64,000 nucleotides of DNA from a virus: positions 32,001 through 96,000 of IMG/VR virus record IMGVR_UViG_3300028388_004772. One strand, 5' to 3'. Below are positions 8,453-64,000 of the stretch, in pieces; position 1 is the first letter of the stretch; each line of letters begins with the position of its first letter. The notes under the pieces are model-generated. The model saw nothing but the letters and a program-made list of their open reading frames with translations, was not told the DNA's origin and did not search any database. Position numbers and translations under genes: made by a program.

Positions 8453-8460
8453 TATTTATA
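8453..8460 (-). promoter_or_regulatory. T4-type late promoter TATAAATA
   Basis: Exact match in the intergenic gap upstream of 8425. Confidence 0.8.
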
Positions 8461-9405: not shown

Positions 9406-9759
9406 TTACCTCGTGACAGATGGTGTAACTTGAGCACGACCTTCTAGTATACGTTCGATTATTGTATTGTCATCGCTATCAGTGTACGAAAGCTCAACAT
9501 CATACACGTATCTTCCCTTTGTCAGAGCATCCGTTTGGGTATTAGTTAACGAAAGGGTAACAATTCCTAAGGTAGGGGGCGTTGCAATAAGAGTGGTGAA
9601 ATCAGTGGTTTCGTCACTGTCACTATTATAGTTTTTCTTAAGCTTAGCTGCAACTAAGTAATTGGTGAGATCTTTGACGGAGCCATCTACATTGACTAAA
9701 TGCAATTCGATCGCTAGATCAGTTCCCTGATCTATTGTAAATTCTTCGTAGGTGGCCAT
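9406..9759 (-). CDS. Small Ig-like virion protein (IDQG...GRYVYDVE family)
   Basis: IDQGTD...LSLTNTQT..L..GRYVYDVEL...RILEG...VTPSVTR; follows a late promoter. Confidence 0.65.
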   Translation of the reverse strand: MATYEEFTIDQGTDLAIELHLVNVDGSVKDLTNYLVAAKLKKNYNSDSDETTDFTTLIATPPTLGIVTLSLTNTQTDALTKGRYVYDVELSYTDSDDNTIIERILEGRAQVTPSVTR

Positions 9760-9810: not shown

Positions 9811-9818
9811 TATTTATA
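9811..9818 (-). promoter_or_regulatory. T4-type late promoter TATAAATA
   Basis: Exact match upstream of 9759, right after the last gene of the enzyme cluster. Confidence 0.8.
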
Positions 9819-9829
9819 AAAAAAAGAAT

Positions 9830-10390
9830 TTACATTTGAAGAAAAATGTCAACAGGAATAGCTAATCTTAATTGAGATGTATATTGTTTGACATAGTGAT
9901 ATACATAACCAGGAAAAATTAAAACATCTCCCGTCTGAGGTTTATGTTCTATGGAAGCAAAATCATTTATGAATGGCGGCATAAATCCTCTGTTAGCGTT
10001 GAAGCGAGGGTCTTGCATAACAATTTCTCCGCCTGAGTCTTGTTCTTCGGCCATTATATAAAATACAGAAACAAATTGAGATCCACTATGGTTATGAGTC
10101 GCCATATTGTATCCATTTGTAGTTCCTGTTAACCATGCTTTGAGCGAAAAGTCAATAGTGTCTAAATCAAAGTTATAAACGTCTTTGAAAAAGTCACTAT
10201 ACTTTTCAGTAGCTACTTCTTTCAATAATGGTGCAGTTTCTATTAGATTAGACGTCCAATCACCCTGAGGTTTAGTGACATCTTCAGTTGATAATACAGA
10301 AGTTGCAATTTGGTCACAAACTTGGTAATCGATAGATGTCTTATAGATTGGTGTAGACCAGGCTTTATTTAAGCCCGCATTCAGCTTCAT
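9830..10390 (-). CDS. 2OG-Fe(II) oxygenase-like protein (HxH type)
   Basis: HNHSGSQFVSVFY...GGEIV..DPR...GDVLIFPGYVYHYV...RLAI. Confidence 0.8.
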   Translation of the reverse strand: MKLNAGLNKAWSTPIYKTSIDYQVCDQIATSVLSTEDVTKPQGDWTSNLIETAPLLKEVATEKYSDFFKDVYNFDLDTIDFSLKAWLTGTTNGYNMATHNHSGSQFVSVFYIMAEEQDSGGEIVMQDPRFNANRGFMPPFINDFASIEHKPQTGDVLIFPGYVYHYVKQYTSQLRLAIPVDIFLQM

Positions 10391-10766
10391 AGTATTTCCT
10401 TACATCTGGTACCATTCCTTTTGTTGGTATAATTGGTACTTGATCTAAAATAGCATCATATGTTTCAGGATCTAAGTCATAAGGTACGAAGTATGGATCG
10501 TTTCCGTAAAGAAGTTCGGGATCATTCAGTAACTGATAAAAGTCTTCTCCATAATCTTCACAAATCCATGTAGCATAACAAATAGCAACAAAATATGATT
10601 TAGCAGGGTAAATCCATTCTGAGACATTTTCATAAAAATGTTTTACTGCATCCCCTACAATATCTTGTGAGTTAATTATATTAACTTTATTAAGATCATC
10701 ATTATAGTCTTTGTTTAGACGATGATATATCTCTTGTTTGATTTTCCATAACTTCATACCATTCAA
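10365..10766 (-). CDS. Hypothetical protein in the radical SAM cluster
   Basis: Overlaps both neighbours; no motif recognised; start may be Met4. Confidence 0.7.
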   Translation of the reverse strand: MNGMKLWKIKQEIYHRLNKDYNDDLNKVNIINSQDIVGDAVKHFYENVSEWIYPAKSYFVAICYATWICEDYGEDFYQLLNDPELLYGNDPYFVPYDLDPETYDAILDQVPIIPTKGMVPDVRKYYEAECGLK

Positions 10767-11655
10767 TTAGCCCCTTGTAACCATTACAGCTATTTTCCAA
10801 ATCACGAACATATCTATAATGTTCTGTTAAACATCTTCCTTTGTATCGACAGCTCTGACATATAGGACTAAGGTTGTTTTTTTCCTTTTGTGTCCATTCA
10901 ATATATTCATCAAAACTTTTTAGCTCTAAAAAATATTCCTTATCATTAATATCAAACTCAAGAACACCAAAGTTTCCATCCGGCGTGATATAAACATGGT
11001 CATCTGAAAACGCGTTATATTGACCATCAATACTTTCAATAATTTTAGATTCATTGACAAAGTTAAACTTTTTGTCAACTCCAGATTGAATCCATTTTTT
11101 AACAAATTCTTCAAAGTCTCTGTGTGTTATATTATAGGAGTTGGCTTGATTAATACTATATGGTTTGATTTCAACTGATTCAATTGACCCGCATACATTT
11201 AACTGGCTAATCATGCTGTCAACATTCATCTGCAATACAGCAGGGGATGCTAAGACTAATACAGCAATAGGTTTAGGTGAGAACATCATGTTTTGAAAAA
11301 CAAGCTCGTTTTTTTCTCGTGCATTAAAGTCATAAGATACTGAAAGATATACATCTTCATCAAAAAAATAATTATGAATCATAGACATATTCGTAATAAT
11401 ATTAATCTCACCATCATAATACTTTCTAATTACATTTTTATAATTGTAAAACACTTCTGGCTTAAGTAGACCTATCTCCCCACCATACATATCCAAATAT
11501 TTTATTTCTGGTACTTCTGATAACCTTTGATCTAATTTTTCAAAAGATAAGCGCCGGCGATCAGACAGCTGTTCTTCAGTCAAGTAACAAAAAGAACATC
11601 TAAAGTTACAATGATAACTAGGATTTAGTGATAATGTGACTGCTTTCGTCGACAT
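10702..11655 (-). CDS. Radical SAM protein with Cys-rich (SPASM/twitch-like) C-terminus
   Basis: CNFRCSFC (CX3CX2C), YGGE, C-terminal CQSCRYKGRC...C. Confidence 0.9.
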   Translation of the reverse strand: MSTKAVTLSLNPSYHCNFRCSFCYLTEEQLSDRRRLSFEKLDQRLSEVPEIKYLDMYGGEIGLLKPEVFYNYKNVIRKYYDGEINIITNMSMIHNYFFDEDVYLSVSYDFNAREKNELVFQNMMFSPKPIAVLVLASPAVLQMNVDSMISQLNVCGSIESVEIKPYSINQANSYNITHRDFEEFVKKWIQSGVDKKFNFVNESKIIESIDGQYNAFSDDHVYITPDGNFGVLEFDINDKEYFLELKSFDEYIEWTQKEKNNLSPICQSCRYKGRCLTEHYRYVRDLENSCNGYKGLIEWYEVMENQTRDISSSKQRL

Positions 11656-12667
11656 ATGGGGTCACCTCAAGGTTCAGTCCATTGGCTTCTATAATAGATG
11701 GGGCAATAGATTTCATAAGTTTACAATGGTCTTCTACCATATTATGTAGCTTCTGATCCTTAATTGTCTTCTTACAACCATTACAGATCTGAAACATAGG
11801 ACAGGAATAACATGCTTGCTTCATTGAATTAAGATACAAGTCATCTCGCAGAGGATGAAACATCTCCCCATTCATCTCTTGTTCAAAGTTAATGGCTTTC
11901 TCTCTATCATCTCCAAACGCCCCGCATGAATAGTAATCACCTTCTGGCTGTAGGGTTCGAATACCTGAATCACAATCCCTATTCTGAGGACAGACGGTCT
12001 GTTCGCCTCTGAGTCTCCTGACCATCTGTTGAGTATTATGTTCCCAATCTGTCAGACCAGCCTTCCAGATCTCAACATACTTTTCATAAATCTTTGCAAG
12101 CATATAAGGTTCTGATTGAACACCAGAGGCCATTGCATAGTTGACCTTACACACCACACCCATCTTTTTAGCGAGCTCGACAGTTTTTAACACGGTGTCT
12201 TCATTGTCCTCTGTAATCACTGCGATGAATGAAGGACGATAACCAACCTTGTCCAACATCATATCAGAAACAGCCCAGAAGTCATCTTCTGTGAATACGG
12301 TATAGTCACCTTTGAGTCTTCCGTCTCCATATTGAAAAGATGTAGCGATTCCGACACGTGGATGTCTGAATAAATCTAACCACTTGCTCGGTTTCTTATA
12401 GAATGGCCACAGATTAGTAGTCAGTGAAATAGAGGTATCATAGCCTCTTTCATCTAAAAAATCAATGATTTTCCAATAATAACTTGGATCGATCATTAGC
12501 GGATCGCCACCATTGACGATGATGGTGTTTGTATTTGGATACCGATCAAGAAATCTGTACACGTGCTCTAGATCAAGCTCAGCTGCTTTATCTTCAACGA
12601 TATCTGTCGAGGAACAGAATGTGCATTTAAAATTACACAGCTCAGTTGGTTTAATAATTAAGTCCAT
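11618..12667 (-). CDS. Radical SAM/SPASM protein
   Basis: IIKPTELCNFKCTFC, NGGDPL, CPQNRDC...YSC...CYSCPMFQICNGC...HC. Confidence 0.92.
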   Translation of the reverse strand: MDLIIKPTELCNFKCTFCSSTDIVEDKAAELDLEHVYRFLDRYPNTNTIIVNGGDPLMIDPSYYWKIIDFLDERGYDTSISLTTNLWPFYKKPSKWLDLFRHPRVGIATSFQYGDGRLKGDYTVFTEDDFWAVSDMMLDKVGYRPSFIAVITEDNEDTVLKTVELAKKMGVVCKVNYAMASGVQSEPYMLAKIYEKYVEIWKAGLTDWEHNTQQMVRRLRGEQTVCPQNRDCDSGIRTLQPEGDYYSCGAFGDDREKAINFEQEMNGEMFHPLRDDLYLNSMKQACYSCPMFQICNGCKKTIKDQKLHNMVEDHCKLMKSIAPSIIEANGLNLEVTPYVDESSHIITKS

Positions 12668-13118
12668 CTACCTTATACGCCAAATTAATAGCAACCCTTA
12701 CTTGATCTGTAGGATTTACTCTGTGTTTAACATGCGATGCTTGGCTAAGCATAACTAGTAAATGTTTTTTAGGCTGAACACACCCGACGACGCTATCATT
12801 ACACTGTATCATCAACTCTCCACCGTGGTCAACAGTAGTGAGATAATACAGAAAAAACGTGTTGTATCCCTCAACTAGATCATTATGCCATTCCATAGTC
12901 GAATGTTCTGATCCTACAAACATAGAGTATGTGTAGTCAGAATAACCTGGGAAATACGGAGCAATATAAGAGCTACCGACATAGCTACTCATATCGTTAA
13001 GATTAACATCAATCATACTAAATGAATTAGACTGCGGCATGTCGTATTGAGGTATCATTTTCTCAATACTTCTGTCTTCAAATGTCACAAATCCATGAGT
13101 AAAAAAGTTATCAATCAT
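12651..13118 (-). CDS. 2OG-Fe(II) oxygenase
   Basis: WHND...YYL...GGEL...HRV...RVAI (HxD...H...R). Confidence 0.8.
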   Translation of the reverse strand: MIDNFFTHGFVTFEDRSIEKMIPQYDMPQSNSFSMIDVNLNDMSSYVGSSYIAPYFPGYSDYTYSMFVGSEHSTMEWHNDLVEGYNTFFLYYLTTVDHGGELMIQCNDSVVGCVQPKKHLLVMLSQASHVKHRVNPTDQVRVAINLAYKVDGLNY

Positions 13119-13133
13119 ATAGTAAAGTAATTT

Positions 13134-13664
13134 TTATCTACCTAAACCAGGAATAAAAAATTCAAAAGTTAACATACGGCGTTCTCCACCTTTATGAGTT
13201 GCTTTATGTTTAAACGCGTGTGTTTGATTTACCCATACGAATTGGTTTGGTTTGTGCGAAATACTAAATTCTTCAAAACCATTAGAAAAATCGATTGTAT
13301 TTCCGTATGGGTCTCCATCGTCTAAATAAATTAAAAAATTAGTATTCAAAGGTCTTTTGACTTCTTCGTAATCGCTATGCCACAGTGAAGACTTGTAGTC
13401 AACGCCAGACCACATACCATTAGTTATAAATTCAAATTCATTCGACACTTGCTTAATGTATTTTTCTGCAACGACTTCTGTAATTTTATCTAATAGTTCT
13501 TGAGATTCTGGAGCATAGACCATTTCTTCTTTCAAGTCTCGCTCTTTGTCTTCGCTTACACAAGTTGGAAACTCGTGTCCTTCGAATAAAGATACAACAT
13601 CCATACAAAATTGATCAGAATAGTATCCTTTTACAAAAAAATCTGTTAATTCTTGCTTTTCCAT
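13134..13664 (-). CDS. 2OG-Fe(II) oxygenase
   Basis: WHSD...LIYLDD...HKATH..GERRML. Confidence 0.75.
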   Translation of the reverse strand: MEKQELTDFFVKGYYSDQFCMDVVSLFEGHEFPTCVSEDKERDLKEEMVYAPESQELLDKITEVVAEKYIKQVSNEFEFITNGMWSGVDYKSSLWHSDYEEVKRPLNTNFLIYLDDGDPYGNTIDFSNGFEEFSISHKPNQFVWVNQTHAFKHKATHKGGERRMLTFEFFIPGLGR

Positions 13665-13690
13665 TATTGATTATCCTGCTGTAATCTATG

Positions 13691-13698
13691 TGTTTATA
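13691..13698 (-). promoter_or_regulatory. Possible variant late promoter TATAAACA inside the enzyme cluster
   Basis: One mismatch to TATAAATA, in the largest intergenic gap of the cluster, followed by AGGA SD and ATG at 13664. Confidence 0.5.
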
Positions 13699-13705
13699 TA
13701 TGCTA

Positions 13706-14194
13706 TTAAGACCAACCAACACTCAATGTCTTTCTTGGTACTGATCCAAAGTATGGACATATCTTGTGTAAAAGAGACGCGTCAAAAGTCACAATTGTTC
13801 CTTTCTCAGGTTGAATTCTAATTTTGTTATTGGGAAAATTAAATAAGTTGTGATTAAAATATATGTCAAGTTCTCCACCAACCCATTTACTAGTATCATA
13901 GTCGAGAAATAATAAAGTTATCCACTCAGCCTCGTTTTTGTCGTCATGTAACTCCCACAATATACAATCTCGCGAATTTTTATCATAAGTTGGAACACTA
14001 ATAGTATGCGCAAGCACTGGATCCATTAATTTATGAGTTAACCCATATACTTCAGCTTGCAACAATTTTAAAATATAGTGATCACTGAGCTTTTGTAAAA
14101 CGTTATGCCCTTCTCCTTCTTTGAAAGGAAGACATAGTATATCGTCGAGCATCTGCTGAGGTATTGCTTTATGTGATATATTATATTTTTGCAT
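13706..14194 (-). CDS. 2OG-Fe(II) oxygenase (prolyl-hydroxylase-like)
   Basis: LHDD...WVGGELD...GTIVTFD..LLHKI...RKTLSVGW. Confidence 0.8.
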   Translation of the reverse strand: MQKYNISHKAIPQQMLDDILCLPFKEGEGHNVLQKLSDHYILKLLQAEVYGLTHKLMDPVLAHTISVPTYDKNSRDCILWELHDDKNEAEWITLLFLDYDTSKWVGGELDIYFNHNLFNFPNNKIRIQPEKGTIVTFDASLLHKICPYFGSVPRKTLSVGWS

Positions 14195-15749
14195 CGATAT
14201 AATTCTCTAGAATGTCTCGGTTTTCATTCAATATCTTTTGTCCTCTATATTGAATATTGTCACCATTAGGTAAAGTATCCATACTAAATCGATTCTGAGA
14301 TAATAGCGAAGATTTAAGAATAGTGCATAGTGCTATAAATTCTGGAAGTTGATTAAGCCCATTCCATAATGCTTTAATATATGGCGATATTTTTTTAAAA
14401 GACATATACTTGGCCATCCATGTTTTGTCTAATCCTTTACATATCTTATTCATTAGAGTCATTTCAATATAATCGTCTATTGAATACGAATAACATTCGA
14501 CTATTGTTTCATATTCAAGTTTAAGATCTTTATAGATCGTATTATCTAAATCGTCTTGGTGGCCAAAGTTAGGATCCATCTCGTTTGTAACAACGATGGT
14601 CTTGATACCATACTTGTTTTTATACTCTGGGTCTGCCGCTTCTGTAGCTGGCAATATCATATACGGATATCTATTATCGTCCCAATAATTTAGATGATGA
14701 TAAAGATCATATTCTTCGTAAAAATCGCTAATAGTTGAGCCAGGCATTCCCATAATTAACTCAAGATCTATGTAGAAATCTGATGGATCTGTCGCTTCAT
14801 TTTGTATCTCCCGAGCTCTATCTAAGACGTAATATATCTGATCTTTTTTAATATCAATTCGTTTAGCCACTTCTCTGGCTTCGTCTGATATAGACTGAAT
14901 ACTAATCGATATTTGTCTTTTAGACATACCCAATTGAACCATACGTCTTAGTATGTCCAACTTTCTCTCAATATCGAGTGTTTTTAATATTGACAATGAA
15001 TCTCCAACACTCAAATTATATTTTGCAAACAAAGATATTACTTCAAAATCTCTTTCTTTAAACATCCCAGTGTTTGCGTCAGTAAGATCTACGTACATTA
15101 ATTCAAACTGACTTAAGTACCGAAGCTCATCTTCAAATATATTTAAAGGCTTTTTAATTACCTTTATTCCTGTACCACCACCCCATTCGCAATAAGTGCA
15201 CTTAAAAGGGCATCCTCTAGTAGTCTCACCTGAAATTATGATCCGTTCAAAGATGTCAAGGTTTTCTTTAAAATAATAAAAGACTTTTCGAAAATAAGAG
15301 TCGCATCTTTTATATACATTTGTATAGCCGTAAACAAAATTAGTTTTTTTTGGAAGCGAAGGATCAATATAGCGATCAATATAGTTTGTTATAAACAACT
15401 CCCCATATGTTAATGGGTCTGCAGCTACAGTATAGTTTTTAACTATGTCAGAATTGAGATGAGGTCCACCGACTACTGTGATCACATTAGGATCAAGTTG
15501 AGATCTAATATTTTCATTAATTGAATAGTTCCACACATAGTTGCAGAACAACACAATATCGCAGTCTCTTAGATTATCAAGAATCATGTCATAAGTCATA
15601 TGATCCCATTGGTATACTGGTTCGACCCATTCAACTCTATCGTTAAATGCACCATGATCTTCATAGTATGTTTTAAACAACATCCAACTATAATTGAACT
15701 CACTTCGAGAAGCATTACTTGCTGGATTTATGTAGCCGATTTTTAGCAT
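14181..15749 (-). CDS. Cobalamin-binding-type radical SAM protein (class B methyltransferase-like)
   Basis: N-terminal FCNYVWN...VVGGPH domain, ETTRGCPFKCTYCEWG, DAN.G, ELIMGMPG.T. Confidence 0.85.
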   Translation of the reverse strand: MLKIGYINPASNASRSEFNYSWMLFKTYYEDHGAFNDRVEWVEPVYQWDHMTYDMILDNLRDCDIVLFCNYVWNYSINENIRSQLDPNVITVVGGPHLNSDIVKNYTVAADPLTYGELFITNYIDRYIDPSLPKKTNFVYGYTNVYKRCDSYFRKVFYYFKENLDIFERIIISGETTRGCPFKCTYCEWGGGTGIKVIKKPLNIFEDELRYLSQFELMYVDLTDANTGMFKERDFEVISLFAKYNLSVGDSLSILKTLDIERKLDILRRMVQLGMSKRQISISIQSISDEAREVAKRIDIKKDQIYYVLDRAREIQNEATDPSDFYIDLELIMGMPGSTISDFYEEYDLYHHLNYWDDNRYPYMILPATEAADPEYKNKYGIKTIVVTNEMDPNFGHQDDLDNTIYKDLKLEYETIVECYSYSIDDYIEMTLMNKICKGLDKTWMAKYMSFKKISPYIKALWNGLNQLPEFIALCTILKSSLLSQNRFSMDTLPNGDNIQYRGQKILNENRDILENYIDAKI

Positions 15750-16261
15750 TTTATTCTAAACACTCTACCGTTCTCAACAACCTTAGGCCCATCATATACC
15801 GAAGACGCGTAGGGGGATTCCATAATATTTGTATTTAATTCTTTAGCTCTTTCTCGCATTGTTTCTACAGTTGGAATCAAATCACCTTTTTTACAAAATG
15901 TGTCAATGAGTAGTTTATACATTACTTTTTGCTCTTTGCGGCTAAAGTAATGTATAAAATTGCCATTGATTTGAATGTTGTTAACTATATTGCCTTCAAA
16001 ACTAATCCACATAATCTCAAGTTCGTCAAGATGTGTTTTTGGCAAACCATTAAATTTTTCAGTTTTTTCTTCAATCGCATTTGTAATATTCTTGTCGCTG
16101 AAAAAACGATCATGAATTGGGAGAGAACAGATGTAAATTTTATTAATTGGTGTTTTAAAATATATGCATGGCGGCACGCCCTGTGGTATATAATCAAAAC
16201 ACACTTCTGTGACTGTGTACGGAAACTTTATTCCGTTTTCAATATCTGTTTGTGAAAACAT
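15743..16261 (-). CDS. Hypothetical protein in the radical SAM cluster
   Basis: Tightly coupled to both neighbours; no motif recognised. Confidence 0.65.
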   Translation of the reverse strand: MFSQTDIENGIKFPYTVTEVCFDYIPQGVPPCIYFKTPINKIYICSLPIHDRFFSDKNITNAIEEKTEKFNGLPKTHLDELEIMWISFEGNIVNNIQINGNFIHYFSRKEQKVMYKLLIDTFCKKGDLIPTVETMRERAKELNTNIMESPYASSVYDGPKVVENGRVFRIKC

Positions 16262-16262
16262 A

Positions 16263-17279
16263 TTATGCTCGAGCTATAATGCCACTTGCTGCATCAATGT
16301 ATCTGAATGTTTCTTTATAGACGCACTCTTCCATTTCTTGTCTATATCTATAATCGTGTTGCATAAAGCAGCCTAGTGTGCACCGATTAAAATATTCACA
16401 CGTAAGACATCCATACTTTTCCATGAAACTTTCTTCGATGGGTGAGTTATCCATTGGTTGTATGTCATGATCATACATCACTTTGTCTTCAGGCGATTGT
16501 ACAAGGTTACCACACATACACATTGTATTATCTTCTAATATAAGCTTACTGCTTCTGCAACTAATGTAGTTCGTTTGCCTTTCAATCCACTCAGCAATAG
16601 GGCTAAGTTTAGGGTAGTTGTTTATAAAGTATTTGAATACAGCATATAGCTCATGATCAGTTGGTGCTTGGTGGTGTGCTGTTTTGTCTGGCATGTAGTA
16701 GTCAGCGTACAGATAGAATCCATCTCTATAGAATTGATCTAAGTTTTTATCTCCTTTAAGAAATGCTTTGATGTTCTGTTTAGTCAACAAAAGACCAATA
16801 CCATCCAAATGCTCTTGAAAGTAGTATAAGTTTTTCTTGAACAATGCTAAGTCTTTTTTATTGAATCTACCAGAGGGATCGTAGCTAGTAAAAAGAGTAG
16901 AAGGAATTGCTTTTAATAGAGTTTCTATTAGGTCAATTTTAGTTGTGACGAGATTTGTTACCCAATTGACAGACGTATTAATGTTATATTTCTCACCAAG
17001 GTCAAAAATCCCTTGAGCAAGTTTTATATAATCTTGGTTGAGCTTTTCATTATAGATTGAGTCAGCGAATATTTCTCCACCCATAATATTAAAAACTACA
17101 GATGATTTTTTCTCTTCTAGAAGAAACTGCTCAATTGGCTCAAGCTTTTCAAGAACCGTATCGATCCCTGTCAGATTACCATGATCTTGCCAACAAAACG
17201 AGCAAGAGAGATTACAAAACTCAAAAAGATGAATGGTGTACTCTTGTTGGTGATCTCTCTTTGCATCTAATAAAATCAT
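16263..17279 (-). CDS. Radical SAM/SPASM protein
   Basis: CNLSCSFC, MGGE, C-terminal C...CMC...CLTCEYFNRCTLGC...EC. Confidence 0.9.
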   Translation of the reverse strand: MILLDAKRDHQQEYTIHLFEFCNLSCSFCWQDHGNLTGIDTVLEKLEPIEQFLLEEKKSSVVFNIMGGEIFADSIYNEKLNQDYIKLAQGIFDLGEKYNINTSVNWVTNLVTTKIDLIETLLKAIPSTLFTSYDPSGRFNKKDLALFKKNLYYFQEHLDGIGLLLTKQNIKAFLKGDKNLDQFYRDGFYLYADYYMPDKTAHHQAPTDHELYAVFKYFINNYPKLSPIAEWIERQTNYISCRSSKLILEDNTMCMCGNLVQSPEDKVMYDHDIQPMDNSPIEESFMEKYGCLTCEYFNRCTLGCFMQHDYRYRQEMEECVYKETFRYIDAASGIIARA

Positions 17280-18337
17280 CTCAAACTATAATTTTTCAGC
17301 TTCTCAGGATTTGTTCTATATAAAGTTCTGCAGTACGAAATAAAGATTGTATTGATCTTACCCATTCTACCTATATCGGTAGAACTAACATGAGTAGCAT
17401 CGGTCTTACATTCTAAAAACTCTTTGATCACCTTGTTCAGTTGAGTGTCGGTAAGCTCACCTTTCATGATTGAATTCAAATATGGAATCTCATCGTCAAG
17501 TGTTTTAAACATCGCGATTGAAGATTGTGCTGATCCAGTGTTTTCTAATTTTGAACAAACATCGATTGCTGCGTTTACTATTTTCTTCGCTTGAGTGTAG
17601 GTAAGCCCTTCTAGTGTAAACTTGCCGGCCGAGCCCGCTATGTAAGGACTCTTATTAACGTCCTCAAAGCTTTTATACGTGGATGATTCAAATATTTCTT
17701 TAAAGAAATTTAAAGACGAATAATTAGAAACATCTAATAATTCGCCTGTGTTGCCAAGAATCTTCTGTAGCTCATCATCTAGAATGTTTAACTCCATGTG
17801 TTGCATCAAACACATCAATCCGTCATCAATTTCTCTACGCATGAACGTAGCAAATGTTTTCTTAAGATTAGATTTGTATCGTGTGTCACCATTTACTTGA
17901 CTAGCAACCATAAATTCTAGCGAAGGAGTATATTGGTAACTTGACAGGTCCAGCTCCGGAGCTTCATCCCAATAATTAATAAGAAAATCTTTCATGCCTT
18001 CACATGATTCATTATACAATTCTCGGTGCTTTACGATACACTCAGCATATATCACCCAATCGTCAGCACTCATATTCGTAGCTGATTTATACCACGTGGC
18101 AGCGATCTTCGCAAATGATTCTATATCAGCATGAATAGCTCTCTTATCATTAGCCAACAGCATATGTAAAAATAAATTTTCTGCATCTTCAAAATCAAAT
18201 GATGGAGCAATGAATTGCTCCTCAGGTTTCAAATCTTCTTTAATAGTATCTGACCAATCAAAATATGCACCGCCAATCTTAGTGTTGTACAACACATCAG
18301 GTGTGTCTAAATAAATTCTATTAAACAGGTGTAGCAT
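17276..18337 (-). CDS. Hypothetical helical protein in the radical SAM cluster (start refined to MLHLFN)
   Basis: ATG at 18337 overlaps the upstream TGA (TGATG coupling). Confidence 0.7.
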   Translation of the reverse strand: MLHLFNRIYLDTPDVLYNTKIGGAYFDWSDTIKEDLKPEEQFIAPSFDFEDAENLFLHMLLANDKRAIHADIESFAKIAATWYKSATNMSADDWVIYAECIVKHRELYNESCEGMKDFLINYWDEAPELDLSSYQYTPSLEFMVASQVNGDTRYKSNLKKTFATFMRREIDDGLMCLMQHMELNILDDELQKILGNTGELLDVSNYSSLNFFKEIFESSTYKSFEDVNKSPYIAGSAGKFTLEGLTYTQAKKIVNAAIDVCSKLENTGSAQSSIAMFKTLDDEIPYLNSIMKGELTDTQLNKVIKEFLECKTDATHVSSTDIGRMGKINTIFISYCRTLYRTNPEKLKNYSLR

Positions 18338-18969
18338 CAGTTTGCCTCTTGTACTTCTTGAATATTGCCGGATGCAATTGCCCATGTAAGGAGAAACATT
18401 GGGTTATTCTCATTAGCCCAGTAAGAAAATAAATTATTTCCTTTAAACATGTAATCGTTAAAGTAACTTGAAAAATATGTAAGATTATTTGGATTTACTT
18501 TTTTGAACAACAAATAAAAATCTTTATTCTTAACCAAACTTATGAAGTTTATTCCTGTTAAATCTTTTGTATCATCTTCTGGAAATTGTTTAACCCAATT
18601 TTGCATTTCTTCAGAATTAACTGAATATATGTTAAAAAGAGTTAATGAATCGATTTTTCTTTCCCAAGATAACAATTCTTCTTTATTATCTACATCTTCA
18701 CCCATCTTTAATTTGCCTAACATAGCTATGACGACAGTTTCAAGAGACGGAATGTTTACTAACACTTGAGTTTTTAAATAATCCCCAACAAACTCTTGAT
18801 CAAAGTTAATTACATCACATGGAAGATCTAAATTACCTAAGTACGTTAATAATCTATCACCCCGTAACTCAGAATTTTGATAATCAATAATAAAGTATGT
18901 TTCTTTATCTTCAAAATACTTTTTCAAATCATCAATTGCAATTGGTGCAGTTGTATCAATAACATTCAT
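18337..18969 (-). CDS. Hypothetical protein directly downstream of the putative substrate
   Basis: TAATG coupling to the 199-aa gene; no motif recognised. Confidence 0.7.
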   Translation of the reverse strand: MNVIDTTAPIAIDDLKKYFEDKETYFIIDYQNSELRGDRLLTYLGNLDLPCDVINFDQEFVGDYLKTQVLVNIPSLETVVIAMLGKLKMGEDVDNKEELLSWERKIDSLTLFNIYSVNSEEMQNWVKQFPEDDTKDLTGINFISLVKNKDFYLLFKKVNPNNLTYFSSYFNDYMFKGNNLFSYWANENNPMFLLTWAIASGNIQEVQEAN

Positions 18970-19568
18970 TATCTTCTACCTCTTGAAGAGTGACACGAGG
19001 AGTGGCAGCTAGCGTGACAAACATTTCGTGTTAAAGTAATAGTGTTATCTCTTTCGCTGTTATATGCAGCTCTAAAATTACTAAAAAGAGTTTCCAAATT
19101 ATCATCGTCAATTATCTCGCCTGCGGAAACGCTAGCATTATCTGGATCGGTGATAGTTTGTAAATAATCATCTGATAAGTATGCAACTTGGGTTTGGTCA
19201 AACACAATACCAAACGTACCAATAGGTCCTTTGTCCGTATTCGATGTGCCAGATACTCCAGTAACGTTTAATCTAGCTCTAACTTTACGTATGGATGTAT
19301 ACCGATTTGTTTCTGTAACAAGTGCATTGTAAATTGCATTAGCATCTATCAATTCACTTCCGTCAGCTTTAATATCATCCCCATCAATGCTAATTGATTT
19401 TCCGTCTGAATTGCCACCCATAAATGCATCAGTAAGCACAGTAACACCTGAATACGTAGGATTTGTATTTGTAGCCCATACAATCCCACCATTTGCATGA
19501 TCCACTACAAATTCTTTGAATCGATTCACTATATTCTGGGCTGTGACTGGATTAGTTAATGTAGCCAT
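18969..19568 (-). CDS. Putative modified virion protein / RiPP-like precursor with C-terminal (Cys-His-Xaa-Ser)3-RGRR
   Basis: Ends VCHASCHSSCHSSRGRR; all three Cys of the protein lie in this tail; body is T/N/D/G-rich like virion proteins; sits among radical SAM genes. Confidence 0.75.
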   Translation of the reverse strand: MATLTNPVTAQNIVNRFKEFVVDHANGGIVWATNTNPTYSGVTVLTDAFMGGNSDGKSISIDGDDIKADGSELIDANAIYNALVTETNRYTSIRKVRARLNVTGVSGTSNTDKGPIGTFGIVFDQTQVAYLSDDYLQTITDPDNASVSAGEIIDDDNLETLFSNFRAAYNSERDNTITLTRNVCHASCHSSCHSSRGRR

Positions 19569-20571
19569 TTATTTCTTCATCCATCTTTATCATTAATAAC
19601 TTTGGAGCCGGACATACATCATCTTCCCATTCAAGCTGATGGCAGTCTCCTTTACAGTATTTATACATGTTACAGGTGTAACACCTTGGATCTCTTGTTA
19701 GCTCTTGGGCAATGATTTCACACCGTTTTGGCTTATTAAGCACATTTAACCCATCGTCAATATGTCCATACACTTCTTCAGGAGCAGCGTTTGGGCAACC
19801 TGATATAGACCCATCGGCATTAATTGTAAATAATTTCTGTTCACAATCACGACAAAAAGTACCAGCTGAGTTAAAATTGTCTTCGAACTTTGTATATATG
19901 TTTTCTAAAAAGTCATTTCTAAACCAAGCTCTTGCATCATAGCGTTTAGTTTGTTCATACATTTTTAAAAACCAGCGCTGGAGCTCCAGATTAGTAGGAA
20001 AAATTATTGGATTTTTTCTTGCTGATCCGTTTAAGGTTAATCTTTCGAGTGCTAATTCCTGCACTCCTAGTTTTTTTACAAATTTAAGAAGATCTATTGG
20101 TTCCATATCTATAACTGATCTACTAAGAGAAACAAACAATTTAATTGTATAACCGCGGTCAAGCAGCAATTTGATATTGTGTTCCCACAGATCGATTTGT
20201 TTTTTATTCTCAAATCGAATGTCTGAATCCCACGACGTTCCAATACGTTTATTTAACGCATTATCCATAAAGTCTAATTTATCATCAGTAAGCTTAAAAA
20301 CAAGATTTGTTGTAGCTCCGTAGCTAAATCCATTAGCTTTTGTGCGATGATAAAAATCCCACATGCTTTCTATAGAGGCGAGAAATGGTTCACCTCCATG
20401 AAACTCAAAATGGCCTGTCCTTCCACTTGTTAACAAATTGCACCAATCTGCAGTTTTTTTAGAATCAAAAAATATCTTTCTACCATTCTTTCCAGAAGTA
20501 AAGCAGTGACTACAATTAAGATTACACGTCTCAGTAGTTTTAATGTAAAACATCAGGTCATTTTTAATCAT
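19552..20571 (-). CDS. Radical SAM/SPASM protein
   Basis: YIKTTETCNLNCSHC, FHGGEP, CRDC...INADGSISGCP...CYTCNMYKYCKGDC...CP. Confidence 0.92.
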   Translation of the reverse strand: MIKNDLMFYIKTTETCNLNCSHCFTSGKNGRKIFFDSKKTADWCNLLTSGRTGHFEFHGGEPFLASIESMWDFYHRTKANGFSYGATTNLVFKLTDDKLDFMDNALNKRIGTSWDSDIRFENKKQIDLWEHNIKLLLDRGYTIKLFVSLSRSVIDMEPIDLLKFVKKLGVQELALERLTLNGSARKNPIIFPTNLELQRWFLKMYEQTKRYDARAWFRNDFLENIYTKFEDNFNSAGTFCRDCEQKLFTINADGSISGCPNAAPEEVYGHIDDGLNVLNKPKRCEIIAQELTRDPRCYTCNMYKYCKGDCHQLEWEDDVCPAPKLLMIKMDEEINGYIN

Positions 20572-20948
20572 TCGTCACCGATCGACAACATTACAGAATC
20601 ATACTTATTGATTGCTTCATGAGGTGTATTGGCTGGTATAAGTAGAGTGTCTGTAATCTCTAACTCTTTACCATTTATTATCATTGTCTTCGTCCCCGAT
20701 AGCACTTTTAATTGTACATCATATGGGTCAATATGACAACGAAAACTTACAGCATTTTTTGGGGAAATGTATAGGTGGACAGTCTTGGGACAGTACTCTG
20801 TATAGTACGACTCTAATCCCTCAACCTTTATTGTCTTTTTATTTTCAGCAATATAATAACCAACCTGATCTAGTGTTATCTCATGATCAAGTTGGTTCTC
20901 ATCAATTATGTAAGCCTTAGTACCATACTTTAAAATTTCAGATAACAT
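20568..20948 (-). CDS. Cupin / minimal JmjC-like protein
   Basis: HLYISP....SF..HIDPYDV....LSGTK...LLIPANTPHEA. Confidence 0.75.
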   Translation of the reverse strand: MLSEILKYGTKAYIIDENQLDHEITLDQVGYYIAENKKTIKVEGLESYYTEYCPKTVHLYISPKNAVSFRCHIDPYDVQLKVLSGTKTMIINGKELEITDTLLIPANTPHEAINKYDSVMLSIGDE

Positions 20949-21829
20949 TCAACTATTTTTACTTCCTCAAAATTATTGCTTTGTAAAGCAATGCCAACCA
21001 TTGGACCAGTACCTGTTACTGATGCGAGACCAGGAGAACAAGCGTATACCACATCTCCTTTCGCTACAGTCCCCTTGATTCTGACAGGTACCCTTCCGAC
21101 AAGGGCTACTGATTGACCCTCAGAAGAAGAATTCATTATATATGCGGGATTTGTTGAAATGACCCCAGTAACCTCTTTACCAGAAGTCCATGGCTCCATT
21201 TCATCATCTTTGTTGGTACCTATTGTCATTACAGTCCCTGGGGGCTGAATGGTCTCCGTTGTATATTTCTCGGCTACGTCAGCATATTGTGCTTGAGTAG
21301 CAGTAGCGGTAATTATATTGGCACTAAAATTGCTCGAATCATCACGAAATACAATTGTATTTGCAGTATTGTCCGCAGTAGCATTTGATGTAACAGTAAA
21401 TGTTCCTCCGTTCGAGCTAACGCTACCAGAAATACCATTACCTGATGTTGCACCTACAGCTACGTAGTTGCCAATTGTAAACTCACCTGTAATTGAATCA
21501 TAATTTAGCCCATTACCCGAGGAAAATAAGCTTCTAGTACTTTGCGCATCTACAGAGCCTGTAAGAGTAAATATACCAGAACCGCTATTGTAAGATAAAG
21601 AAACGCCAGTAGCTTGGTCATCCACGCTAATCGATTGTCTTGATATAGTAGTAAGTTCACCTGAATCATCAAAGGCGCTGACTATATTTCTTACTGTGTT
21701 AATAGCATCAACAACATTACTATCACCTGTCACTAAATTATCGACATTTCCAACATCATTAGAAATAGTATTTGTCTTAGTGACAAATACCGACATAGTG
21801 TCTGACAGGTTAACATTAGTTATAGCCAT
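20930..21829 (-). CDS. Short fibre protein with C-terminal intramolecular-chaperone-like domain
   Basis: N-terminal V..SDT...F..KTN anchor; YADVAEKY...GTV...GVISTNPAYIMN...VALVGRVPV..GD. Confidence 0.7.
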   Translation of the reverse strand: MAITNVNLSDTMSVFVTKTNTISNDVGNVDNLVTGDSNVVDAINTVRNIVSAFDDSGELTTISRQSISVDDQATGVSLSYNSGSGIFTLTGSVDAQSTRSLFSSGNGLNYDSITGEFTIGNYVAVGATSGNGISGSVSSNGGTFTVTSNATADNTANTIVFRDDSSNFSANIITATATQAQYADVAEKYTTETIQPPGTVMTIGTNKDDEMEPWTSGKEVTGVISTNPAYIMNSSSEGQSVALVGRVPVRIKGTVAKGDVVYACSPGLASVTGTGPMVGIALQSNNFEEVKIVECYLKF

Positions 21830-21835
21830 TTTAGA

Positions 21836-22069
21836 TTACCTATTTTTCTCGACTAATTGTACCAATAAATCTTTGATTTCTTTTATCTCGTCTTTAAGAT
21901 CTTCGACCTCATTGGCGAGCGACAGCTGCTGTTCTTTTTGCTGCTTCATTAATTGTTTTCTCTTTCGGGCCGCTTCAATTTCAGCCTTGTTTGTATTGAT
22001 GACAACATTTGTTTCTGTGTCTCTTACAAAACCCGAAAGATTTTCCACTTCCTTATACTGCAAGTGCAA
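21836..22069 (-). CDS. Small coiled-coil protein downstream of the large baseplate protein
   Basis: VRD..T..VINT motif followed by a heptad-rich C-terminus. Confidence 0.65.
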   Translation of the reverse strand: MHLQYKEVENLSGFVRDTETNVVINTNKAEIEAARKRKQLMKQQKEQQLSLANEVEDLKDEIKEIKDLLVQLVEKNR

Positions 22070-25000
22070 TGGCCCTCAAGTCCTTCAATACTGGGATGTA
22101 TGAAGTACTTGTGGATTCCATTACAATCTTAATCTGGAAGGATGTGAATGCTGGCAATTGGCCACCTTCACCACCAATCAAGTACTCATACTCTCTGAAC
22201 ACCAATACCTCATCAGAAGGCACAGTTGTAGTAGCGCTCGCGAGCTGCCAACTAGTATCCCTAATTGTCTCTGCGTCAGTAGATGTTCTGTAGTAAACTT
22301 TAAAGTTACCAGCAGATGGTCTGTACGCTGCAAAGAACAACTTAATACCAACAGCCTCTTCTGCCAACGTTGCAACAGTTGTAATGTGCTTCGAAGCTGA
22401 TGAGCCATTGTATGGATCGGTTTCATCTACAATCGAAATTGGTACATTGAAACCAGATGTGTTGGACGAATCTTGCTTATCAATAGAGTTCTCAATAAAT
22501 GTCATCGAAGCTCTTTGAAGATCAAGAATTGGAGATACTTTAGTATCGCTTGTTGACAAAGTCAACTTAATCGTAGCAGCATCTGCAACCTGGTTCTTCG
22601 AGTTAGGAATTAGCTTAGGAGCCTGTGTTCCATTCACCTCATTAATAATGATTGGGGTGAAAGAAGATGCCACACTATAAGCTGAGTTGGTTGCCTCGTT
22701 ACGATCAGTACCCCAACTTGCTCCACTTGTCAACTTAATACTACCAGAAATACCAGTATTATTAGGTGTTAGGGTTTGTACCGTTGTGAAGTACTCATTG
22801 AACATGAACTGCTGAGTAGACTTAACATTTGTTCCACCCGTGCGAATTGATCCTGTTGCTGCTGAATCAGCTGCAAAAGTATATCCAGTCCAGTCAGTAT
22901 TAATGATTGTTCTATCACCAAGCATCGACGCACCTTTAATTCCAGCATATGTCGATCCTGAATCTAAGCCATACAAAGCCACTGTATCATTCTTAACAAA
23001 TCCATGGCCTTCATGGAACACACGAATAGTCGTAGAACCTGAATCAGTTAGAATTGGATCACTACCGAGCAAATACAATGGTGGTTGTGCATTGGTTAGG
23101 TAAGCATCACCTGAGCTGCTAAATTCAGCACGGTTAATTCTAAACATCAAATCTCTATTCTGATCTGGTGTCCAGGTTGTACCGTTTTGTGATCTATACA
23201 ATGAACCAAGAGTTGGTTGCTTCGATACTCTTGCATCCGTAGATCCAAGAACAAAATCATATGTCTTGGCAACATAGACTGTGTAGTCTGTAGTCTCTGC
23301 TGCAACCACTATTGCATACTCTTGACCAGGGGCCAGGTAAATTGGCTCGTCAAATGTAAATGTTGTTGGAGCTGCTCTTACACTTTCAAGGTCTTCTAAA
23401 TCAGCAGGAATTGATACTTCAGTTGGTGATAGATATTTGACAGCACCTGGTAACGGATATGCTAAAGGTGTGCCGTTCTCTACTCCACGAATTTGAACCT
23501 GTACAGGTTGACCTCCAGTTGGAGCCTTTGTTCTAAAGAATACATCAACACTTGTTACAAAGATACCAGATGGGTTCTCTGTTTGTGATACAAAGAATGA
23601 TTGGGCAACTGGGTCCCAGAAACAGAAAATCGATTTCTTCTTAACAACAATTGTCTGAACATCAATCTCTCGTGTTACTTTAAGTGTTCTTTCTCTTACT
23701 TCCAATACACCAGTTGATGTAAAGATGTCTTGACACAATGATGTTGCGTTGTCATCATTATCAGCTGTGATATCAAGAAGTTTGAGAATCTTTGATCCAG
23801 TTCTGAATTTGATTGCATTAGTAGAAGGAATGAAGAATGATCCTTCAATTTTACCCTCAGCATCTGAGATCAAACGACTCTTACCCTCAGGATGCTCAGT
23901 TGCTCTTTGATAGATATTACCATAATCTTCAGTAGTAGAACTGTATCGTACAAATGATTCTTCTCGAACCCAATCAGCAACACTAACACCATTAAAGAAG
24001 GCAAAATGTTCTGTGTTCGGTTTTAATCCTTGAGCCTTAAAGTATACTTTCTTAGATCTCATGTAAGGAATAAGGAATGTTTCTATTACTCTGTTGCCAA
24101 CCTGCTCAATAATAATATCATCTCTGACTACAGCTTCGTTTGATGCAATTGATACGCTTGGTTGATCATCAATCAATGCATTGACGGCAGCTGCTGTGGC
24201 AGAGCTTGCAGCTGCAAGACTAGCTGCAGTGAGATAATTACCTGCCATTAGCTGACCGAGTGCAGTTGTGGAAAGAGAGAATCCAGTACTTGCAGCTCCA
24301 ACACCAGTAGCAGCTCCTCCTGCAGTTCCTCCACCAAGTAGTCCAAAACCACCCGTTTTTGCTGCTATTACCAAGGCAACTGCTATACCAAACCAGCCAC
24401 CAAAGGTTCTTTGAACAACCGTTCGAGTACCCACATTTCTCTTCTTGACACCACCATCAATTAGAACGTCCGGTAAGAATGCTTGCTCAATCCAGTCGTC
24501 CGATGCTGGGGAAAGCTGAAGAGTACCAGTGTTGATAATAACTTCAAATGGGTTAACATTAATTGCTTCGTTACACAAATCTTGATATGAAAACTGAGTT
24601 TCTGTGTACGGAAGAGTAACAAGATCACCTGTCTTATTAGTTGTCTGACTGACGCCATCTGAATCGAAGAACAGCCGCACATTACCATAGTAAATCGCTG
24701 GCGTAATAACTTTGGCCGATGGATCCAAAGCAGCTCTATAGCTAACATTGTCCACATCAGAAAAAACAAAATCCTTGAAGTTATCAGCAAAGAATCCTGA
24801 CTTAGTTCTTTGCAATCCGTTTGAATCTAGTACAGATAATGTCGATGTATTCAATTCAAGCAAACTCAGAGAGGTAACATCTGCTAACTTGTTTATTCTT
24901 TTTTCAAGTGAACCGATGTCTTTCATCGTATATCTTCTATTATTAATGAAAGATAGGTTTACATCAGAATCACTCAAAGTGTATGGAGGAAGAGTTATAT

Positions 25001-29521: not shown

Positions 29522-29529
29522 TATTTATA
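29522..29529 (-). promoter_or_regulatory. T4-type late promoter TATAAATA
   Basis: Exact match upstream of 29494; nearest exact late promoter I found upstream of the radical SAM cluster. Confidence 0.8.
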
Positions 29530-32774: not shown

Positions 32775-32782
32775 TATTTATA
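32775..32782 (-). promoter_or_regulatory. T4-type late promoter TATAAATA
   Basis: Exact match upstream of gp25. Confidence 0.8.
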
Positions 32783-40662: not shown

Positions 40663-40670
40663 TATTTATA
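40663..40670 (-). promoter_or_regulatory. T4-type late promoter TATAAATA
   Basis: Exact match upstream of gp48 in the divergent gap. Confidence 0.8.
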
Positions 40671-41182: not shown

Positions 41183-41190
41183 TATAAATA
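41183..41190 (+). promoter_or_regulatory. T4-type late promoter TATAAATA
   Basis: Exact match just upstream of the gp2 ATG. Confidence 0.75.
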
Positions 41191-61221: not shown

Positions 61222-61229
61222 TATTTATA
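61222..61229 (-). promoter_or_regulatory. T4-type late promoter TATAAATA upstream of the glycan cluster
   Basis: Exact match; downstream genes run with short gaps to 50630. Confidence 0.8.
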
Positions 61230-63656: not shown

Positions 63657-64000
63657 CTATTTATACACTTCTTCAAGTCTTGCGAATAAATATTCTTCCA
63701 AGTCATCTTCATTTGCTTGATAGCGAATACCAATACCACCTGCATCATTCCAACGCTTGATGTTATCTGGCTTATCGTCAATCAGAATGTTCGGAAGACC
63801 CGTAATACTTGAAGTTGCATACTTGTGTTTGTTGCCAGTAAAAATGCATTTTGAAACAGCAGGCATGTATCCATTCTTTTCTAACCAGCAACGCTTGTGG
63901 TAAGTTGAGTTTGCAAAATCATTACGGATCGGTGATGAACAAATACCCCAGTCTCCGTTAGACAACTCTCGTACAAAATTGATCAATTGATCAGACGTTT
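63657..64000 (-). CDS. HAD-family 5'(3')-deoxyribonucleotidase-like protein, C-terminal part
   Basis: ICSSP...K..WL...K.KYA...NILIDD...NI..W..AGG.GI; 5' end lies outside the window. Confidence 0.75.
   Translation of the reverse strand, partial: TSDQLINFVRELSNGDWGICSSPIRNDFANSTYHKRCWLEKNGYMPAVSKCIFTGNKHKYATSSITGLPNILIDDKPDNIKRWNDAGGIGIRYQANEDDLEEYLFARLEEVYK
63658..63665 (-). promoter_or_regulatory. T4-type late promoter TATAAATA
   Basis: Exact match overlapping the end of the upstream gene, ahead of 63629. Confidence 0.75.

Follow-up and report, generated by a model that had tools for sequence, protein, structure and literature searches.

A widespread phage cassette of radical SAM enzymes and oxygenases is linked to a candidate virion protein with an invariant Cys-His-x-Ser tail

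The 141-kb IMG/VR virus record IMGVR_UViG_3300028388_004772 comes from an uncultured T4-like phage, and the stretch analyzed here (the window, 64,000 nt in full) holds T4-type baseplate wedge genes and fibre genes around a block of enzyme genes at 9830-20948. This block represents a cassette that is widespread but unnamed and recurs across hundreds of phages as well as predatory bacteria. In it, radical S-adenosylmethionine (SAM) enzymes and 2-oxoglutarate (2OG)-Fe(II) oxygenases are encoded together with a protein, g13, whose last 16 residues form an invariant tail, (Cys-His-x-Ser)x3-Arg-x-Arg-Arg. We consider it probable, at about 60%, that the enzymes modify the tail of this late, fibre-linked virion protein.

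The C-terminus of g13 is CHASCHSSCHSSRGRR, corresponding to the pattern (C-H-x-S)x3-R-G-R-R. The window contains a single match to the DNA pattern of the tail, whereas 100 shuffles contained none. Among 50 aligned homologues, C184, H185, S187, C188, H189, S191, C192, H193, R196, R198, and R199 were all invariant, whereas the mean column identity of the body was 0.25-0.68, and the body contained no Cys in 40 of the 50 proteins. This combination of an invariant core with a variable body, the reverse of that in most peptides that are made by ribosomes and modified after translation (RiPPs), suggests a constant chemical role for the modified tail. In addition, the Ser and Arg positions are as fixed as the Cys and His positions, which argues for enzyme recognition and chemistry over plain metal binding. 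As judged from the sequences, the tail appears to be the sole conserved candidate substrate in the cassette.

An AlphaFold 2 (AF2) model of g13, built from the 50-sequence alignment, showed an alpha/beta body with a predicted local distance difference test (pLDDT) score of 88 and a predicted template modeling (pTM) score of 0.82. The confidence dropped to 74 and then to 53 across the last 20 residues, as for a flexible tail. No match to g13 was found in Pfam or NCBIfam, and no convincing solved relative was found (best E 1.4 by Foldseek against the PDB; best Z 4.0 in a wide VIA search). In BFVD, the g13 fold recurred in uncharacterized phage proteins only, including a 296-aa protein of Agrobacterium phage Atu_ph07. 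The body fold also lies inside three 504-660-aa proteins of an uncultured myovirus, Myoviridae sp. ctijX18 (A0A8S5USJ7, A0A8S5USJ8, and A0A8S5USV2; E 8e-5 to 2e-3), so the domain also exists fused into larger proteins.

The original prediction, made from the sequence of the window, had described 15 co-oriented, mostly overlapping or abutting genes beside a chaperone-bearing fibre gene. The open reading frame (ORF) calls agree: 9830-20948 contains 15 ORFs, all on the minus strand and the majority overlapping or abutting, bounded by the 299-aa fibre gene g16 (20930-21829) and by further fibre and baseplate genes. The inventory in the prediction also stood when compared with the Pfam, NCBIfam, hhalign, and structure matches: the 15 genes comprise five radical SAM enzymes, four 2OG oxygenases, one JmjC-like cupin, four proteins of no family, and the tail protein g13 with its Cys/His/Ser end. 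Likewise, as it had stated, no transporter, protease, or nucleotide-pathway family was matched by the cassette proteins in Pfam and NCBIfam scans. The G+C content is 0.33-0.37 within the cassette (10001-22000) compared to approximately 0.40 in the flanking structural genes, which fits a module exchanged between phages. The genes and the promoter motif are as follows.

g16, 20930-21829, minus strand: short fibre protein heading the module, with a self-cleaving intramolecular chaperone (IMC) at its C-terminus (PF11962 Peptidase_G2 IMC, residues 171-236)
g15, 20568-20948, minus strand: small JmjC-like cupin of 126 aa, candidate protein hydroxylase (PF08007 JmjC_2, 28.7 bits, cut-off 22; Cupin_2 weaker)
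g14, 19552-20571, minus strand: radical SAM/SPASM enzyme directly upstream of g13, overlapping the g13 start (PF04055; TIGR04085, 31.7 bits)
late-promoter motif TATAAATA, 19658-19665, minus strand: T4-type, inside g14, 97 nt upstream of the g13 start codon
g13, 18969-19568, minus strand: 199-aa protein with the tail at 18972-19019, presumed substrate (phrog_35144)
g12, 18337-18969, minus strand: 210-aa protein of no known family, obligate downstream neighbour of g13 (phrog_20767)
g11, 17276-18337, minus strand: protein of about 353 aa (369 aa from the start at 18385), no known family, accessory; its ESM Atlas record begins at residue 17
g10, 16263-17279, minus strand: radical SAM enzyme with a Cys-rich C-terminus, core member (CX3CX2C; PF04055, 25.0 bits, below the cut-off)
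g09, 15743-16261, minus strand: 172-aa ORF, no relatives found
g08, 14181-15749, minus strand: B12-dependent radical SAM methyltransferase type, accessory (PF04055 match)
g07, 13706-14194, minus strand: 2OG-Fe(II) oxygenase (PF13640, 29.1 bits, cut-off 27)
g06, 13134-13664, minus strand: diverged 2OG-type oxygenase, paralogue of g05 (hhalign only)
g05, 12651-13118, minus strand: 2OG-Fe(II) oxygenase, borderline (PF13640, 26.7 bits, cut-off 27)
g04, 11618-12667, minus strand: radical SAM/SPASM enzyme, core member (PF04055, 39 bits; SPASM, 25.9 bits, cut-off 27)
g03, 10702-11655, minus strand: radical SAM enzyme with a CxxCx5C C-terminus, core member (PF04055, 29.5 bits, exactly at the cut-off)
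g02, 10365-10766, minus strand: 133-aa protein of no known function, frequent in the cassette (phrog_20737, E 2e-45)
g01, 9830-10390, minus strand: 2OG-Fe(II) oxygenase of the PF13759/TIGR02466 type (PF13759, 44.4 bits)
g00, 9406-9759, minus strand: 117-aa tail-fibre-assembly-like protein closing the block just outside the cassette, with its own TATAAATA at 9811-9818

The tail and the enzymes were linked in both directions. The tail DNA pattern followed by a stop codon was matched by at least 119 viral contigs. Among the matches listed, 147 ORFs of 124-309 aa were found, all of which end in the tail. When the window proteins were compared by phmmer with the ORFs of the related loci, the recurring order was g16, g15, g14, g13, g12, (g11), g10, (g08), (g07), g04, (g05), g03, g02, (g01), (g00). 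Of the 61 loci whose upstream sequence reaches 3.5 kb or more, 43 have g14, 42 have g15, and 42 have a co-oriented g16 homologue upstream of the tail protein. Downstream, g10, g12, g04, and g03 were each present in 19-22 of the 26 loci with at least 7 kb of sequence (22 for g10, 19 each for g04 and g03), and the less constant members were g02 (13/26), g01 (11/26), and g11, g08, and g00 (7/26 each). Because these loci had been selected by the tail, the reverse test was also run: all 80 loci selected by g12 homology alone have a CHxS-tailed ORF directly upstream, which ends -3 to +18 nt from the g12 start. Every homologous cluster examined in this synteny survey contains a CHxS-tailed gene, which supports the original prediction.

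Through g12, the cassette was also found in the cultured jumbo phages Ralstonia RSF1, Pseudomonas pPa_SNUABM_DT01, Sinorhizobium Phosso, and Agrobacterium Atu_ph07. The order in all four is a cupin, a radical SAM gene, a 178-306-aa protein, the g12 homologue, and further radical SAM genes, and the 178-306-aa protein in each (ORF071 in RSF1, gp065 in pPa_SNUABM_DT01) ends in the same 16 residues save the x positions. In RSF1, the tail protein is separated from the g12 homologue by an additional 356-aa gene (locus L006:7571-8641, ORF072; weak FkbH_N match, E 0.002), and two dihydrofolate-reductase-like genes are also found inside the cassette.

In species-representative genomes, 27 loci matched the tail pattern. 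At least 15 of them belong to Bdellovibrionota, on contigs of up to 1.29 Mb, and carry the same enzyme set. The remaining genome matches are mostly metagenome bins and may be phage contigs. The bins L155 (Methanobacteriota metagenome-assembled genome SP339), L131, L132, L138, L143, L150, and L154, labeled as archaeon, Rhodobacteraceae, Rickettsiales, or Flavobacteriaceae, contain the cassette and look like phage contigs binned with cells, not cellular copies. In one Bdellovibrio locus, the radical SAM gene ahead of the tail-protein gene is itself immediately preceded by a gene that encodes a Peptidase_S74 chaperone domain. Over the 8 kb covered, an IMC-type fibre gene lies beside the cassette in one Bdellovibrionota locus only (L133), and we do not claim a fibre link in Bdellovibrionota in general.

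Some loci depart from the usual layout. In one subfamily, twin tail proteins of 125-140 aa lie right behind a giant fibre gene with a g16-like C-terminus. The giant ORFs with this C-terminal region (L138, L143, and L154) are comparable in size to the 1749-aa ORF of the window (22053-27302), which is located immediately upstream of g16. At L122:7817-8515 and in L144 (a Dysosmobacter segnis contig), the usual ARGRR end is preceded by a larger number of CHxS units with interruptions (…CHSSCHSNVVCHSSCHDSCHS…); one of these variants derives from a gut Firmicutes genome.

The original prediction had placed the cassette among the late genes, and g13 was found to have a late-promoter motif of its own. 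Nine copies of the T4 late-promoter motif TATAAATA are present in the window, most of them shortly upstream of start codons on the coding strand, and these probably mark the late promoters of a T4-like phage. Besides the copy upstream of g13 and that of g00, copies are located at 8453-8460, 29522-29529, 32775-32782, 40663-40670, 41183-41190, 61222-61229, and 63658-63665. Among 150 distinct g13-homologous genes, 90 have the motif within 200 nt upstream, compared to an expectation of 0.017 per 200 nt, indicating that the tail protein has its own late promoter. The same motif was found for 63 of the 81 tail-protein genes of the 150-215-aa class.

The presence of the tail protein in virions was assessed for Atu_ph07. 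The virion proteome of this phage includes gp170 (31.89 kDa; 8 unique peptides, 35% coverage; PMC6102473, Table S5), and CDS 170 was placed at the start of a virion gene cluster (PMC6102473). The computed mass of the 296-aa CHxS protein of Atu_ph07 is 31.89 kDa, in agreement with gp170, and the nearby 607-aa and 198-aa proteins compute to 66.07 and 21.66 kDa and correspond to gp176 and gp177. Table S5 (PMC6102473) does not list the products of the neighbouring cupin and radical SAM genes, nor those of the g12 homologue and of the next radical SAM gene downstream. These results support the part of the original prediction that concerns a virion protein, since the Atu_ph07 homologue is virion-associated and its enzymes are not.

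The gel distribution of gp170 is a lead only, from one gel of phage purified with polyethylene glycol (PEG). The protein was spread over gel fragments 1-9 with its peak in fragment 1, which otherwise contained 87-127 kDa proteins, whereas 31-34 kDa proteins peaked in fragment 7 (PMC6102473). A 32-kDa protein that peaks at the top of the gel after 95°C in sodium dodecyl sulfate (SDS) suggests a very stable or covalent assembly. It is possible, though somewhat unlikely, that the tail becomes a reactive or cross-linked group (an aldehyde, or thioether or Cys-His bridges) that staples the protein into the virion assembly or acts as a cell-surface cofactor, shared by large phages and Bdellovibrio-like predators to attack Gram-negative envelopes. 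If so, the top-slice peak of the Atu_ph07 homologue after SDS boiling would be a first trace of it.

The families of the enzymes are consistent with action on proteins. All five radical SAM enzymes (g03, g04, g08, g10, and g14) contain CX3CX2C, and they are the only radical SAM genes in the whole 141-kb record. Their PF04055 scores are 39.0, 36.7, 29.5, 29.5, and 25.0 bits (cut-off 29.5), the lowest being that of g10, which was still recovered in the genome search. Four SPASM-type C-termini had been predicted, SPASM being taken as a C-terminal domain with seven Cys for two auxiliary clusters. For TIGR04085 (cut-off 27 bits), g14 (31.7) passed and g04 (25.9) fell just under, and g03 and g10 have Cys-rich C-termini with no hidden Markov model (HMM) match. 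g14 gave weak full-length matches to DynA, QhpD, PapB, and the anaerobic sulfatase-maturating enzyme (anSME), all far under the family cut-offs. For g04, the matches were to DynA-like proteins (E 3e-14) and anSME (E 9e-12), and the anSME structure 4k36 was matched over the SPASM region (E 1e-4). From these profile scores, the SPASM maturases of the cassette resemble anSME, QhpD, PapB, and DynA at the superfamily level only.

The one B12-type radical SAM enzyme of the original prediction is g08, which was closest to CysS and TokK among solved structures (E 3e-17, with the N-terminal domain covered; residues 62-359 against CysS 64-367). TIGR04013 covers residues 79-188, and a partial KedN5-like match (NF033712, E 5e-26) was obtained, although membership of the KedN5 family was rejected at 91 bits against the 700 required. 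On these alignments, g08 fits the class B B12-dependent radical SAM methyltransferases, with an N-terminal cobalamin-binding domain followed by the radical SAM core. For g06, which had no Pfam match, hhalign gave a relationship to the g05 family with a probability of 100% (E 1e-41, 151 columns); hhalign also relates g05 to g07 and g01. By profile similarity, the 2OG oxygenases are of the prolyl 4-hydroxylase (P4H) type.

Regarding the cupin, the JmjC_2 ribosomal oxygenases (PF08007) YcfD, NO66, and MINA53 hydroxylate Arg or His in proteins. g15 matches PF08007 above the cut-off and the tail is rich in His and Arg, but g15 has only 126 aa and about 45 model residues were matched. Overall, in keeping with the original prediction, the enzymes do not fall in cofactor or DNA-modification families but group with peptide- and protein-modifying ones.

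The constant neighbour g12 was modeled by AF2 from a 50-sequence alignment (pLDDT 92.5, pTM 0.86). No convincing solved relative of the model was found by Foldseek (best E 0.18) or VIA (best Z 4.8, for the first 59 residues only), and in the ESM Atlas the best match in shape was an unnamed viral cluster (TM 0.44). The ESM Atlas entries for g12 and g11 are poor models (pLDDT 0.34 and 0.38) that gave no usable match, and nothing was found in the PDB by sequence for g12, g11, or g14. The invariant residues of g12 are Tyr, Asn, Gly, Phe, and Leu, unlike a metal or nucleophile site, and g12 was therefore read as a helper in the manner of HxsD. A complex prediction for g13 with g12 gave a score of 0.00 (mark 0.32) and was used neither for nor against.

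For the other genes, g16 falls in the PHROG tail fibre and minor tail families, and g00 matches phrog_1084 (E 9e-22) and phrog_3304, "L-shaped tail fiber protein assembly" (E 1e-17). g11 has no Pfam or NCBIfam family match, and g09 has no match in Pfam, NCBIfam, or PHROG and no homologue in the related loci. At E ≤ 10, Pfam gave nothing credible for g02, g06, g09, g11, g12, or g13. In the phage collection, which may lack close records, no match was obtained by megablast with the cluster or by tblastn with g13.

The characterized members of these enzyme classes act on peptide or protein side chains, and the tail is the only conserved candidate, which suggests that it is the tail that the cassette modifies. 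The computed results are the gene content, the invariance of the tail, the synteny in both directions, the late-promoter motif, the presence of one homologue in virions, and the predicted fold; the tail as substrate, the chemistry, and the place in the particle are what we infer. The cassette product would be g13, a late protein whose folded body evolves fast and whose 16-residue tail is flexible and invariant. The four SPASM-type enzymes (g14, g10, g04, and g03) would take hydrogen atoms from the tail and install cross-links or oxidations on its Cys, His, and Ser side chains. The likely products would be bridges of the thioether type or others based on Cys; further options are hydroxylation, methylation, and a conversion of the final Cys, which lies in a C-x-x-S-R context. 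The JmjC-like cupin and the 2OG oxygenases would hydroxylate side chains, the B12-type g08 would add methyl groups, and g12 and g02 would be non-catalytic helpers. The modified protein would be neither cleaved nor exported but built into the particle as a component of the g16-headed fibre module, the modified tail serving as a fixed chemical device (a staple, an anchor, or a metal site) and the variable body as the exposed part.

Several observations weigh against this proposal. Cys/His tails can simply bind metals. The receptor-binding tip that the original prediction had thought likely would be a putative role, the g13 body being predicted by AF2 to be globular, not fibre-like. The annotations of RSF1 and FLC6 do not class the homologue as structural. 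In addition, the virion evidence comes from one distant homologue, in PEG-purified particles that also contained some replication proteins (PMC6102473).

The tail might instead be a metal or iron-sulfur site, with g13 acting as a scaffold, electron donor, or carrier and the enzymes acting on the g16 fibre, the upstream giant fibre, or a small molecule. Three Cys and three His in the flexible end of g13 would suit such a site, radical SAM enzymes require a reductant, and the fibre gene g16 is likewise conserved beside the cassette. However, the Ser positions and the R-x-R-R end, neither of which metal binding needs, are as invariant as the Cys and His residues, and the hypervariable body is unlike that of a housekeeping redox partner. 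The late promoter of the tail-protein gene and the recovery of a homologue, but not of the enzymes, from virions also point away from this alternative, which we consider unlikely.

The original prediction had called the cassette RiPP-like, and this description fits only loosely. Radical SAM/SPASM RiPPs (sactipeptides, ranthipeptides, darobactin/dynobactin, and CXXX-repeat peptides) share with the cassette the enzyme class and a short Cys repeat beside the maturase, and the cassette enzymes gave weak matches to the DynA, DarE, and TIGR04115 models. The CXXX-repeat maturase family (TIGR04115, at least 350 bits) was rejected, as g14 scored 19.8 bits. Unlike in these RiPPs, the precursor is a folded protein of 124-309 aa, it is the core that is invariant and the body that varies, no leader protease or exporter is present, and the product appears to stay in the virion as a folded protein. 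A RiPP in the strict sense, with a leader protease and a released or exported small product, was rejected for the same lack of a protease or transporter family in the window cassette and in the conserved set, set beside Atu_ph07 peptides that span 35% of the protein.

It is quite unlikely that the cassette makes a true RiPP or a protein-derived cofactor, in which the body would be a long leader and the 16-residue tail, once modified, would be cleaved away and either set free at lysis or put to use inside the infected cell as a small bioactive molecule or cofactor. The combination of an invariant core and many tailoring enzymes does recall pyrroloquinoline quinone (PQQ) and mycofactocin, the enzymes resemble RiPP maturases, and some RiPP classes have long leaders. 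Nevertheless, related cassettes contain neither protease nor exporter, the body is a confidently folded 180-residue domain in the AF2 model, the whole Atu_ph07 protein was recovered from virions at 35% coverage, and the cassette is tied to fibre genes.

Auxiliary metabolic or DNA/nucleotide-modifying functions (viperin-like, DNA hypermodification, or host Fe-S metabolism) with an unrelated tail protein are hardly probable at all: weak viperin-type matches (E down to 4e-9 in NCBIfam and 1e-11 for PADLOC pVip) and the proposals of DNA repair or a metabolic boost in some phage genome papers, which list these genes without function, speak for them, but those matches are mostly confined to the generic radical SAM core, over roughly its first 100 residues, and in NCBIfam lie far under the cut-off, the cassette has no kinase, glycosylase, transferase, or nucleotide enzyme, and cassette and tail protein are strictly linked whichever one the search starts from. 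Prokaryotic viperins (NF038283 and PADLOC pVip, at least 180 bits full-length) were rejected as a family at a best score of 36 bits; one weaker 24-bit PADLOC match, on g03, is the exception to the partial coverage. The PADLOC scan gave generic viperin-core matches and nothing else.

Modification of the tail as proposed here appears, by analogy, to have its closest described counterpart in the bacterial HXS antiphage system (HxsA, HxsB, HxsC, and HxsD; TIGR03976-TIGR03979), which is alike in logic but not in family membership. In HXS, HxsB and HxsC with HxsD mature the HxS-repeat protein HxsA; neither the His nor the Ser of the repeat can be dispensed with, and one repeat was found to carry a change of +8 Da (Li et al., Nat Commun 2026, PMC13128918). 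Both systems have a full-size protein with short His/Ser repeats, more than one radical SAM enzyme, and a small partner of no known family. In contrast to HxsA, the cassette tail has a Cys before each His, exactly three units, and a position at the very C-terminus followed by R-x-R-R. The cassette encodes four to six SPASM-type enzymes plus oxygenases, whereas HXS has paired radical SAM enzymes; HxsA is a defence effector of the periplasm, whereas the cassette sits in fibre modules of phages and yields a product that appears in virions. Membership of HXS was rejected, since g13, g12, g11, and g02 gave no match to TIGR03976-TIGR03979, and g14 and g04 scored 27.4 bits against 370 for HxsB and 28.5 against 267.9 for HxsC, respectively.

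QhpD/QhpC (gamma subunit of quinohemoprotein amine dehydrogenase) and the PapB-type thioether maturases offer another parallel, in that a radical SAM/SPASM enzyme cross-links Cys of a polypeptide that stays in a protein complex. g14 aligns full-length with the QhpD and PapB models but at 38 bits against cut-offs of 340-453. The QhpD/PapB acceptors, Asp and Glu, are absent from the tail, and the cassette has no amine dehydrogenase genes. For anSME, the best solved-structure match of the g04 SPASM region, TIGR03942 (at least 349 bits) was matched by g04 and g14 at 44.8 and 36.6 bits, and membership was rejected. The last tail unit, C-H-x-S-R, has the Cys-to-Arg spacing of the sulfatase motif C/S-x-P/A-x-R, which we take to make it resemble the motif that is converted to formylglycine. 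This spacing alone is in common: position 3 is Ser, Gly, Ala, or Asn, not Pro/Ala, and neither the cluster nor its proteins contain a sulfatase or sulfatase domain.

Searches of the literature returned genome papers only; no paper was found that deals with the tail motif or with a virion protein modified by radical SAM enzymes, or that characterizes the cassette, in line with the statement in the original prediction that it knew of no characterized phage example. Radical SAM maturation of a ribosomal protein product is of a known kind; the setting and the motif are new. The cassette is also of interest to enzymologists, since it brings a new substrate motif, several new subfamilies of radical SAM enzymes, and two helper proteins without a known fold, and its cultured carriers Atu_ph07, RSF1, RSL2, FLC6, and pPa_SNUABM_DT01 make the question directly testable. 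In the common view, the proteins of phage particles are almost all left unmodified, apart from proteolysis and a small number of isopeptide bonds. The present cassette spans 11 kb, encodes up to ten redox enzymes, and appears to be devoted to one virion protein; its conservation extends from marine T4-like phages through jumbo phages of 490 kb to predatory bacteria. If this is true, radical chemistry would be a regular step of virion assembly, and it would account for many of the phage radical SAM genes that papers ascribe to metabolism or DNA repair.

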